Both the position numbers and the translations under genes were made by a program. 64,000 nucleotides of DNA. Origin: Pseudomonadota bacterium (GTDB taxonomy: Archaea; Thermoplasmatota; SW-10-69-26; JACQPN01; JAJPHT01). Shown here one piece after another: positions 3,769-6,189 of this stretch; positions within the stretch are counted from its first letter, which is position 1, and each line of letters begins with the position of its first letter. The DNA lies in contig JAJPHT010000039.1 in assembly GCA_021325135.1 (NCBI GenBank), positions 32,001 through 96,000 of the forward strand, given 5' to 3'. The notes beneath the pieces are model-generated. The model was not told the DNA's origin, did no database searches, and saw only the letters and a list, made by a program, of their open reading frames with translations.

Positions 3769-6189
3769 TTACGGCGTCGGCACCGGGATGGGCGTTCCTC
3801 CGGTGCCGGTCGTCGTTCCTGTGCCCGTCCCCGTGGGCGTCCCGCCGGTCGAAATGGGGATGCTCTTCCCCGTCACGTCCACCAGCGCCAGGGGCGGCAT
3901 CACCGGCGCGGGCGGCGGCAGAAGCGCGGGGTGGATCTTCTCCAGGTCCACCGCGAGCTTCAGCAGGCCCTGCAGCGCCTCGGCGTACGAGCCGGGCGCC
4001 GCGATCTGGATGAGCGTCGCCGCGCCGGGGTCCGCGAGCATCTGCTTGACCTCGGCGTCCGCGGCGTCGGCCTCCTTCACGATGAGCGCGCGGTTGCCCT
4101 CGAAGCCCACGATGGGCAGGCGCCAGATGGGGTGGTCCCCGTTGAACGAGTCGAACTGCGGGACGTCGTCGCGCAGCGAGGGCTCCAGGAGCGCCGCCTG
4201 GCAGAGGAGGCCGAAGTAGTACGTCTTGTTGTGGTTGACGTGCTGGAGCAGCGGGTCCGCGTCCGTGATGACGATGGGCGGCGGCACCTCGAAGGAGGGC
4301 GTCGCCGTCGCGGTCGGGGTGCCATCATCCGCGCGCAGCGTGCTGCCCAGCGGGATCGTCAGGCGGCGGCGGTAGCCCGAGGCCGTGACGAACGCCAGCT
4401 CGACGCGGTTGACCTGCGCGAAGTTGGGGATGGAGAGGTTGCCCAGCACCGTGAGGTCGGGGCCCAGCGTGAGGTCCATCTGCGCGCCCGTGAGGTCGGA
4501 GGCCGGGGCGGGCACGTTGAGGCGGATCGTCTGCGTCGCGCGGGTCGTGCCGGGGCGCAGGCTGAACGTCGTCGTGCCGTCGCCCACCGCGACGTCCACG
4601 GTGGCGCCGCCGCTGCCCACGCCGTAGTCCAGCGTCACGTCCACCGCGACGACGGGCAGGTTCGCGCCGCGGCGCACGTCCACGGCGGCCGCCAGCGTGT
4701 CGAAGTGCGGCCGCAGCTTGCGCTCCAGGAGGTTGGGCTCGAAGATGCGCCGCAGGTCGACGATCTGCTCGTCGGTGAAGAGGTACGCCTGGCCTGGCTG
4801 GCTGAGGTCCGCGATGGTCTCGCTCTCCACCTCCAGCACGTCCTCGACGTGGGTGCAGACCATGTAGTTCTCGTACATCGTCCAGCGGATGAGGTTCGTG
4901 ACGCGCGAGAGCAGCGGCGAGACCTTGCCCAGCGTGCTGGTCACGGCGTCGGAGAGGTCGCGCTGCGTGGACTGCGCGAGGCGCGTCGCCTGGTTCACCA
5001 GCGTCTTCGCGGCGTGGAGCGAGGAGTTGACGTCCAGCGACGTGTCGACGTGGCTGTGCGAGGTCGCGGTCGCCGTGACCTTCACGTCCGCGCCGCCACC
5101 GCCGAAGGCGAACGGAGGCAGGAAGAACCCGCCGCCGCCCGCGAGCGCCGTCGTGCGGACGCTGGTGGCGAGGCTCGTGACCGCGTCCACGCTGCCCACG
5201 CTGTGGAGGCCGTTCACGACGTCCTCGGTCGCGCGGGAGACCAGCTCGTCCACGCTGCGCGTCGCGTTCTGCACGAGCTTCTCGGCGGTCTGCGTCGTCT
5301 CCTTGAGGATGGAACCCGGGTCCAGGGGCTCAAGCTGCGTCAGCTCGCCCAGCGTGTAGCCCAGGAAGTTCCACTCCTGCCGGACGCGCACGAGGTAGCG
5401 GCGCGGGGGCTTGCCGTTGACGGACGCGCCGATGCGCGGGACGACGAGGCGCTTCACCAGCGGCACGCGGCGCTTGCGGAAGTCCGTCTCGTCGCCGCCC
5501 ATCTGGCCCAGGATCGGGTCGTTGACGGGCCCGAGCAGCTTCGTCAAGTCCTGGCAGAGGTCCGTCGTGAAGTCCGCCGGCAGGCGGTCCAGCGGGTTGT
5601 CCGTGAGCGGCACCGACGCGATGGCCTTCTGCGCGGTGGAGGCCACGCTCGTCACCTCAATGGGCACCTCCACGGGCGGGTCGATGGTGAGGTCCATGAC
5701 CTGGTGCTGCTTGCCCATGGGGATGTTCACGGGGCGCGTGATGGCGGGGGCGCCCTTGCGGAGGATCTCCACCGTGCCGTTGGAGGGCGTCGACGGCATG
5801 TCGCCCATCATGTTGCCCGACATCGCGGGGAAGAGGAGGAGGGCGGCGCCGCGGCGGTCCGTCGTCGTCTCGTCGCGCAGGTCGCTCCCCTGGAGAAGCC
5901 GCACGCGCAGGCCGGGCACGGGGTCGCCCGACGCGGTGCGCGCCAGGAGGAGGACGACGGGCTGCTTGCGGCCGTCCATGGCCGTCGTGGCCTTGCTGGC
6001 GAGCTTCGCGGGCCGGTCGACGAAGGGGCGAAGGCCGTGCGGGTCCTCCAGGCGCCGCGTGAACTGCGCGCGCAGCTTGGGGGTGAACGTCTTGACCGGC
6101 GAAGGCTGGGGCGCGGGCGCCGGGCCCGCCCTCACGGGCTTCGTCGCGATGGGCTCTCGGGCCGGGCGCTTGCTGGCGGTGGGCGGCAT
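3769..6189 (-). CDS. Large hypothetical protein (806 aa), possible beta-pore-forming-toxin-like fold
   Basis: Long GC3-biased ORF; Ig-like N-terminal part; QEWNFLGYTLGEL..LDPG, Ser/Thr-rich hairpin, LLQHVNHNKTYY; start at MPPTASK inferred. Confidence refers to coding status, not function. Confidence 0.75.
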   Translation of the reverse strand: MPPTASKRPAREPIATKPVRAGPAPAPQPSPVKTFTPKLRAQFTRRLEDPHGLRPFVDRPAKLASKATTAMDGRKQPVVLLLARTASGDPVPGLRVRLLQGSDLRDETTTDRRGAALLLFPAMSGNMMGDMPSTPSNGTVEILRKGAPAITRPVNIPMGKQHQVMDLTIDPPVEVPIEVTSVASTAQKAIASVPLTDNPLDRLPADFTTDLCQDLTKLLGPVNDPILGQMGGDETDFRKRRVPLVKRLVVPRIGASVNGKPPRRYLVRVRQEWNFLGYTLGELTQLEPLDPGSILKETTQTAEKLVQNATRSVDELVSRATEDVVNGLHSVGSVDAVTSLATSVRTTALAGGGGFFLPPFAFGGGGADVKVTATATSHSHVDTSLDVNSSLHAAKTLVNQATRLAQSTQRDLSDAVTSTLGKVSPLLSRVTNLIRWTMYENYMVCTHVEDVLEVESETIADLSQPGQAYLFTDEQIVDLRRIFEPNLLERKLRPHFDTLAAAVDVRRGANLPVVAVDVTLDYGVGSGGATVDVAVGDGTTTFSLRPGTTRATQTIRLNVPAPASDLTGAQMDLTLGPDLTVLGNLSIPNFAQVNRVELAFVTASGYRRRLTIPLGSTLRADDGTPTATATPSFEVPPPIVITDADPLLQHVNHNKTYYFGLLCQAALLEPSLRDDVPQFDSFNGDHPIWRLPIVGFEGNRALIVKEADAADAEVKQMLADPGAATLIQIAAPGSYAEALQGLLKLAVDLEKIHPALLPPPAPVMPPLALVDVTGKSIPISTGGTPTGTGTGTTTGTGGTPIPVPTP

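Follow-up and report, generated by a model that had tools for sequence, protein, structure and literature searches.

Does an archaeal chromosome encode a protein that inserts into membranes, and if so, what kind of protein is it? The question is raised by a stretch of 64,000 nucleotides from contig JAJPHT010000039.1 (assembly GCA_021325135.1, positions 32,001 to 96,000), hereafter the window, in which an open reading frame (ORF), P0002, occupies positions 3769-6189 of the minus strand. An initial annotation made from the sequence alone had described its product, here called the target, as an orphan protein with a hairpin resembling the membrane-inserting element of oligomeric beta-barrel pore-forming toxins (beta-PFTs) such as anthrax protective antigen (PA) or aerolysin. 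We think that the target is soluble and multidomain and that it acts on a membrane, which most likely belongs to another cell. In the explanation that we favor, tentatively and at somewhat below even chances, it is toxin-like, oligomeric and membrane-inserting, has no leader and contains a previously unseen core fold.

The ORF is a real gene. It comprises 806 codons and a stop codon without internal stops, and GC content at third codon positions (GC3) is 0.96-1.00 over about 3900-6150, which is most of its length. The closest relative, P0004, shares 80% identity and likewise begins with MPP. An alternative 980-aa frame reaching 6711 is the antisense of a plus-strand SCP2 gene at 6371-6745. The ATG at 6189 is the likely start, because P0004 shares the MPP start and because the longer frame is antisense to SCP2. 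Coordinates given below are those of the window, and all features of the target lie on its minus strand.

Evidence for membrane insertion centers on a tip element at residues 334-388 (5026-5190), which was delimited by sequence, family comparison, a period-2 signal and column statistics; the segment described initially corresponds to residues 338-384. In order, the element contains a Ser/Thr-rich period-2 arm, the apolar loop ALAGGGGFFLPPFAFGGGGA and a second period-2 arm ending in a near-invariant DTSLxVN. An uncharged apolar tip, rich in Gly, Ala, Ile, Leu, Val or Phe and variable in length and sequence, was found in all 61 aligned members of the family. The longest uncharged run per member had a median of 25 residues and a maximum of 44, with runs of at least 30 in 24 of the 61. 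The tip was also the sole recurrent stretch with transmembrane-like hydropathy, seen in about half of these members. The Gly-flanked hydrophobic tip reported initially is present in the target, but the symmetric GGGG-FFLPPFAF-GGGG arrangement is confined to the closest archaeal members; other family members have longer Gly/Ala/Ile/Leu/Val tips. Across the family, the tip contains a median of 7 GxxxG and 4 zipper motifs. The target tip has a 20-residue uncharged apolar run and 0 zipper motifs, and no glycine zipper, that is, repeated (G/A/S)xxxGxxx(G/A/S) in an apolar stretch, was found in it.

The target was modelled with AlphaFold2 from 61 sequences, with a mean predicted local distance difference test score (pLDDT) of 71.8. 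In the model, two long, confident strands flank an exposed excursion made of two amphipathic helices of 40 residues each, and the tip sits at its far end. Burial of the segment in the core of an enzyme or adhesin, named beforehand as the outcome that would speak against a membrane hairpin, was not seen; the segment was instead modelled as an exposed excursion. The framing motifs pointed out in the initial annotation were located at residues 271-292 (QEWNFLGYTLGEL..LDPG) and 432-446 (NLIRWTMYENYMVCT). They carry most of the family's invariant residues and are predicted to be the strands by which the chain enters and leaves the excursion. Conserved motif 1, RYLVRVRQEWNFLGYTLGEL...LDPG (residues 264-292; 5314-5400), includes the long strand leading into the hairpin (residues 264-280, pLDDT 83-90) and the invariant residues R264, V267, Q271, W273, Y278, L280, G281, L289, P291 and G292; it is also found in a sister family described below. 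Stalk helix A follows at residues 291-331 (5197-5319), is modelled with pLDDT <50 and has a periodicity power of 1.29 at 100 degrees versus 0.15 at 170 degrees. Stalk helix B, at residues 383-420 (4930-5043; pLDDT 42-67), has a power of 1.17 at 100 degrees. Conserved motif 2, SPLLSRVTNLIRWTMYENYMVCTHVEDV (residues 424-451; 4837-4920), is assigned to the return strand of the core sheet (strand 438-458, pLDDT 81-96), with P425, L426, R429, V430, N432, W436, Y439, E440, Y442 and V444 invariant. Residues 244-280 and 438-458 together form a confidently modelled three-strand sheet with very long strands.

Hydropathy averaged over the family showed alpha periodicity at 291-330 and 387-425 and period-2 (beta) character in the arms, roughly at 335-350 and 365-390. 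In the arm after the tip, power was 1.09 at 180 degrees versus 0.28 at 100 degrees. The alternating Ser/Thr strands proposed initially are real and conserved in the family, but they are short, sit on a helical stalk and have an apolar face of Thr/Ala/Val only. Two inserted states are suggested by these features: the GxxxG-rich tips of bacterial members favor a helical state, and the period-2 arms favor a beta-hairpin.

Beta-sandwich regions on either side of the hairpin, also proposed initially, were recovered in the model at residues 73-177 and 508-634. The second of these (4288-4668; pLDDT >90) is predicted to be a PLAT/LH2-like domain, with an eight-stranded beta-sandwich that VIA-align superposed on known members. 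Its best match was the C-domain of C. absonum alpha-toxin (1olp_A; Z 9.5, 106 residues aligned, root-mean-square deviation (rmsd) 3.0), followed by lipoxygenases 1lox_A (Z 8.9) and 3o8y_A (Z 8.8), pancreatic lipase-related 2oxe_A (Z 8.4) and 3cwz_B (Z 8.3). The PLAT matches spanned residues 508-640, with 97-106 residues aligned at Z 8.3-9.5; by sequence, Pfam PLAT gave no match to the target at E <= 1. PLAT/LH2 domains bind membranes or lipids, for example at the C-terminus of clostridial alpha-toxin, the N-terminus of lipoxygenases and the C-terminus of pancreatic lipases. Although residues 508-634 superpose on such proteins, the partner domain in the target is not a lipase, phospholipase or oxygenase. 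The first sandwich (residues 73-177; 5659-5973) resembles a transthyretin/CarboxypepD_reg domain by VIA-align and Foldseek and was modelled as a seven-stranded prealbumin-like sandwich. It aligned with the S-layer protein SlaB (8qox_B) over 89 residues (VIA-align Z 9.5, rmsd 2.2), and scores of Z 8-9.5 were obtained to SlaB, carboxypeptidase D and many transthyretin-like proteins, with a Foldseek E of about 4e-4. Pfam CarboxypepD_reg matched below its cut-off, and in sister-family members only.

A highly conserved C-terminal alpha/beta domain follows at residues 646-747 (3949-4254; pLDDT about 90-96). It has many invariant positions and the motifs HVNHNKTYY, WRLPIVGFEG and AAPGSYAEALQG, and it aligns with HLNxNxxYY...LPTPGVFAE of the sister family. 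No counterpart of its fold was present among the best 50 VIA-align matches (lowest Z 6.6). Searches with the whole model (PDB Foldseek, ESM Atlas, VIA wide and BFVD) returned matches confined to the two sandwich domains. When the core was modelled alone (residues 236-512), pLDDT was 58, Foldseek returned nothing at E <= 1e-3, and the best VIA match, at Z 5.5, was to generic coiled coils. A prediction with three copies of the core scored 0.00; the core fold in it was uncertain, so that this result is neutral on binding.

These data bear directly on the kinship with PA or aerolysin that had been suggested. If the target were a true beta-barrel PFT of a known lineage (PA/binary-toxin B, aerolysin/ETX-MTX2 or MACPF/cholesterol-dependent cytolysin (CDC)), its arms and tip would convert to a membrane-spanning beta-hairpin of a ring oligomer. 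Conserved period-2 amphipathicity in both arms is consistent with this, and elongated beta-PFTs likewise have their insert between very long strands, here of 17-21 residues. Like their counterparts in MACPF/CDC proteins, the low-confidence helices might be metamorphic, and the core is followed by a sandwich of membrane-binding type, an arrangement that recalls perforin and CDC domain 4. However, no Binary_toxB, Aerolysin, ETX_MTX2, MACPF, Thiol_cytolysin or Leukocidin match, nor any other Pfam match, was obtained at E <= 1, and PDB sequences gave no match to the single sequence or to the family profile, including no toxin. PA-like, aerolysin and MACPF chains, for which the initial annotation had proposed a Foldseek comparison, were absent from the Foldseek and VIA-align matches listed for the whole model and for the low-confidence core. 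Clear alpha periodicity extends over about 80 of the approximately 150 inserted residues, the apolar face of the arms is limited to the residues named above, and the GxxxG-rich bacterial tips favor helix packing. We consider a known beta-PFT lineage to be highly improbable.

In PA, domain 2 is a beta-barrel core with the 2beta2-2beta3 insertion loop; no chain of this kind was among the matches listed, the core model having a pLDDT of 58. The likeness to PA/binary-toxin B and aerolysin/ETX-MTX2 lies in a Ser/Thr-rich period-2 hairpin with an aromatic/apolar tip inserted between long strands, in sandwich domains on both sides and in a soluble precursor. The target differs from PA and aerolysin in its mainly alpha-periodic insert and its lack of a signal peptide, and its relatives differ in their Gly-rich tips of up to 44 residues and in collagen tails that suggest trimers, not heptamers. 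Compared with aerolysin/ETX-MTX2, in which the hairpin has about 40-50 residues, long strands and period-2 arms are present, but the insert of about 150 residues is mostly alpha-periodic and no fold match was listed. Compared with the bent four-stranded sheet of MACPF/CDC proteins and their two helical clusters, which refold into hairpins, the model has one helical hairpin and a three-strand sheet, and no MACPF/CDC chain was listed. A membrane-inserting hairpin is plausible, and this view is somewhat strengthened by the family-wide apolar tip, the modelled exposed excursion and the adjoining PLAT-like sandwich; a PA- or aerolysin-type assignment is not supported.

In function, the closest parallels are the hydrophobic tongue at the end of the helical bundle in ClyA-type toxins, the glycine-zipper toxins and the pairing of core and sandwich in perforin and CDCs. 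Perforin and CDCs pair a pore-forming core with a membrane-binding sandwich, and ClyA is leaderless. The target resembles the alpha-PFTs ClyA, Hbl and Nhe in having a long antiparallel helical stalk with a short, hydrophobic, partly beta-periodic far end. It differs from the ClyA family in that the stalk is a two-helix hairpin arising from a beta-sheet core and accompanied by two sandwiches and a C-terminal domain; ClyA-family structures were not among the fold matches listed. Glycine-zipper segments are reported to be the membrane-depolarising element of known toxins such as EsxX, a toxin of the type VII secretion system (PMC12744356). The tips of bacterial relatives, packed with GxxxG (median 7), resemble EsxX and VacA-type GxxxG channels. 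In EsxX the zipper belongs to a terminal toxin domain with LXG targeting and an immunity gene, whereas in the present family it forms an internal loop within a multidomain protein of 800 aa; the archaeal target, unlike both EsxX and VacA, has a tip without a zipper motif.

The target is not an orphan. A word-indexed search gave 74 relatives at E <= 1e-61, and 126 of 1.84 billion cluster representatives matched in a profile search, 69 of them at E <= 1e-30. About 70 relatives are full-length, all of them metagenomic, and come from Thermoplasmata, Actinomycetota, Acidobacteriota, Chloroflexota and Gemmatimonadota; record titles name Thermoplasmata, Mycobacteriales/Frankiales, Pyrinomonadaceae, Thermoanaerobaculia, Chloroflexota and Longimicrobium. 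All family members are uncultured, many belong to one series of soil metagenome-assembled genomes (MAGs), and the nearest relative comes from a MAG labelled Thermoplasmata archaeon. The host genome of the target is archaeal; it contains two Cdc6/Orc1 genes, and matches for Cdc6/Orc1 in the control set were archaeal only. Weak profile matches led to the sister family, which has 47 clusters and includes a protein of the cultured Pseudofrankia sp. BMG5.37. The two families are homologous along their entire architecture (hhalign 99.4%, E 1e-21, 592 columns). By sequence homology, the target is a member of an unnamed superfamily common to archaea and soil bacteria. No Pfam, NCBIfam or PADLOC model matched the core of the target family, and the core of the sister family is likewise unnamed. 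Pfam-A hmmscan of the 980-aa frame containing the target returned no family at E <= 1, and a literature search did not find a description of the family. Weak LeoBC and PdsO matches on P0045, a bacterial relative with a long zipper tip and a collagen tail, were dismissed as compositional, as they fall on the Gly-rich tip, and the JGI label 'gas vesicle protein' on some relatives was judged an artefact of Gly-rich composition.

The family is rare. Among 185,579 genomes (one per species), 12 loci were found in four phyla. The family profile was positive in 2 of 41 genomes of the window's own phylum (its own genome and 40 relatives), and the copy number in its own genome is 1. Its distribution is patchy across archaea and bacteria, two domains of life. 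Rare and patchy spread is the pattern expected of an accessory gene for conflict between organisms. One bacterial MAG, GCA_041601615.1 (L024:3525-12797), has two paralogues of 1124 and 1598 aa about 1.1 kb apart, both with N-terminal beta/gamma-crystallin domains and no signal peptide.

Relatives of the target carry a variety of fused modules, of kinds common in extracellular targeting or in cell-envelope proteins. At the N-terminus, beta/gamma-crystallin domains (up to three copies, E down to 2e-55), ChW repeats (E 6e-29) and a weak, sub-threshold fascin-like match (E 1.9e-5, with no stretch passing alone) were found, in each case without a signal peptide. C-terminal collagen GXY runs of 14-31 triplets were present in 22 of the 74 relatives, in the same position as the Gly/Thr/Pro-rich tail of the target. 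This tail, with the Pro-rich linker that precedes it (residues 748-806; 3772-3948), was delimited by sequence and by pLDDT <50, and contains no uninterrupted GXY. Sister-family members have OmpA-like domains and a Hedgehog-N/Peptidase_M15-like domain (2e-48). The ligands of crystallin, ChW, OmpA and M15-like modules are calcium, sugars, cell wall or peptidoglycan, and collagen repeats trimerise. In addition, the sister-family protein P0184 has a C-terminal extension of about 200 residues (about 1000-1196) without a Pfam match, which may be a further effector-like module.

Such modules might also belong to a self-assembling surface or matrix protein, such as a coat, sheath or adhesin-like protein, in which the tail would serve as a stalk and the apolar loop would anchor the protein or mediate assembly, with no pore. 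The collagen tails of relatives and the Thr/Pro/Gly-rich tail of the target would suit this role. SlaB and pilin domains come closest to the transthyretin-like sandwich, and beta/gamma-crystallin fusions recall coat proteins such as Myxococcus protein S. However, an export signal or sorting motif is absent, no assembly or glycosylation genes are linked at the 12 loci, and the family is very sparse, even inside one genus. A conserved, strongly apolar, GxxxG-rich segment of 25-44 residues would also be unusual for a purely structural surface protein. We regard a surface or matrix role as distinctly unlikely.

The initial annotation had noted neither a signal peptide nor a partner gene for the target, and both observations extend to the family. 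A signal-like or hydrophobic N-terminus was found in 0 of 61 members; within the first 70 aa of the target, the maximal 12-residue hydropathy was -0.02. The N-terminal region of the target (residues 1-60; 6010-6189) is basic, Pro-rich and of low confidence (pLDDT 47-57 for the first 30 residues). The N-termini of P0002, P0004, P0026, P0030, P0038, P0064, P0077 and P0098, which come from different phyla, all start with Met-Pro-Pro, and a basic, disordered stretch comes next; such a beginning could act as an export or processing signal that has so far escaped recognition, or be a by-product of high GC. Gene neighbourhoods were surveyed by all-against-all BLAST of the ORFs around 12 loci, and the family gene alone was shared. 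The lack of a conserved neighbour indicates that there is no immunity-like partner.

Within the archaeal lineage, gene order is conserved. A 124-aa SCP2 lipid-carrier-like gene (6371-6745, plus strand; Pfam SCP2 E 1e-9) is divergent from the target gene. It is also found beside P0004 and P0007, and was thus retained at 80% and 55% identity in the archaeal lineage only, not in bacteria. The archaeal block argF...SCP2-target...geranylgeranyl-reductase-like (GGR)-metallo-beta-lactamase (lactamase_B) is syntenic down to 55% identity. This synteny points to vertical inheritance within the archaeal lineage and not to a mobile island; an integrated element in that lineage was rejected, since gene order is retained in the 55%-identity relative.

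The chromosomal setting is relevant to a second alternative, in which the target is a protein of the cytoplasmic face, anchored in the inner leaflet by its hairpin with both halves cytoplasmic, and serves in a scaffold, membrane-remodelling or stress role, much as proteins with a hairpin anchor or a paddle do. The absence of signal peptides fits this role, and a central hairpin inserted from inside keeps both ends on the same side. The syntenic housekeeping context with its SCP2 lipid-carrier neighbour is consistent with it as well, PLAT domains also function on the cytosolic side of membranes, and the long amphipathic helices are reminiscent of membrane-remodelling proteins. The ChW, OmpA-like, M15-like, collagen and beta/gamma-crystallin modules of relatives, however, have extracytoplasmic ligands. 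In addition, the family is rare and patchy, unlike a conserved housekeeping function, and the Pfam scan found no nucleotide-binding or energy-coupling domain. A cytoplasmic-face role appears unlikely to us, with perhaps the best prospects of the alternatives.

Absence of a leader, together with collagen tails and sandwiches, is also typical of phage fibres. The target might accordingly be a domesticated or stray protein for membrane penetration or fusion from a virus or tail-like particle: a trimer that is released by lysis and carries a tip like a fusion loop on a helical stalk. Its apolar Gly-rich loop may be likened to fusion loops or fusion peptides, and one sister-family member has a fused cell-wall peptidase. 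Phage tape-measure and ejection proteins have muralytic and membrane-active parts, and the peptidase fusion recalls these. Phage or virus genes were found in none of the neighbourhoods examined, however; BFVD matches were limited to the sandwich domains, with a TM-score by query of <=0.10, and synteny in the archaeal lineage is stable. We consider a viral origin of this kind to be very unlikely.

Insertion into a membrane from outside by a signal-less, toxin-like or bacteriocin-like protein is the reading that we favor, because a conserved apolar tip is exposed on a long amphipathic stalk in company with a PLAT-like sandwich, and because the family combines extracellular-type modules, the absence of a signal peptide and partner gene, and rare, patchy spread across domains of life. 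Under this reading, the target would leave the producing cell by a non-classical route, for example by lysis or in vesicles. It would then oligomerise, probably as a trimer, since 22 of the 74 relatives end in collagen triple-helix repeats. The PLAT-like sandwich, judging from its fold, may dock the protein on a lipid surface, and the apolar Gly-rich tip of the helical stalk would be driven into the bilayer. The Ser/Thr period-2 arms and amphipathic helices might then line a pore or merely anchor the protein.

Several observations weigh against outside-acting membrane insertion. Stalk and tip have a pLDDT below 50, so that their fold is not established, and the tip of the target is the weakest in the family, with 20 residues, no glycine zipper and hydropathy below the transmembrane threshold. 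The fused modules belong to relatives, and the target carries none. Known pore-formers were unmatched in sequence or fold, the latter with a weak core model. None of 61 members has a signal peptide, and no secretion-system or lysis gene is linked at the 12 loci. Lastly, the gene lies amid housekeeping genes in a syntenic archaeal chromosomal block, unlike most toxin islands.

A more far-reaching proposal would extend to the whole superfamily. It would be a new class of leaderless, trimeric, membrane-perforating or membrane-fusing proteins whose core fold lacks a solved counterpart, transferred horizontally among soil archaea and at least four bacterial phyla. By exchanging modules for targeting (crystallin, ChW, collagen) and for payload or envelope functions (OmpA, M15 peptidase), its members would make up a polymorphic weapon used across domains of life and effective on, or from, archaeal membranes as well. 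We hold this wider proposal to be doubtful, with about one chance in four.

The target is a promising candidate for a new structural class of membrane-active proteins spanning archaea and bacteria. To our knowledge, archaeal protein toxins and pore-formers are almost unknown. In a family that spans ether-lipid archaea and several bacterial phyla, a membrane-active-looking element has been retained in kind and rebuilt in each lineage. If membrane action is true, the family would add a structural class of pore-forming or membrane-inserting proteins and offer a way into the study of antagonism between soil archaea and bacteria, or of anti-predator defence. It would in that case also provide two unnamed families, with about 70 and about 50 sequence clusters, with a first lead to their function. 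Should the target be an internal membrane scaffold instead, it still represents a conserved domain architecture without a name or structure.

Other features were observed around these genes. Sister-family genes adjoin large AAA_16-GerE (LuxR/MalT-type) regulators in Pseudofrankia sp. BMG5.37 and in one metagenome contig (L025:1046-6801 and L010:3146-9480). Immediately downstream of the target gene in the window (2430-3759) are a zinc-ribbon ORF (3343-3759, plus strand), convergent with the target gene, and a minus-strand PIN-domain ORF with a coding signal at about 2430-2850. In the 180-bp divergent intergenic region between the target and SCP2 genes, a near-palindrome, GGGAAAAAGCGTTTCCC, lies at 6332-6348, 23-39 nt upstream of the SCP2 ATG, and could be a promoter or operator element.

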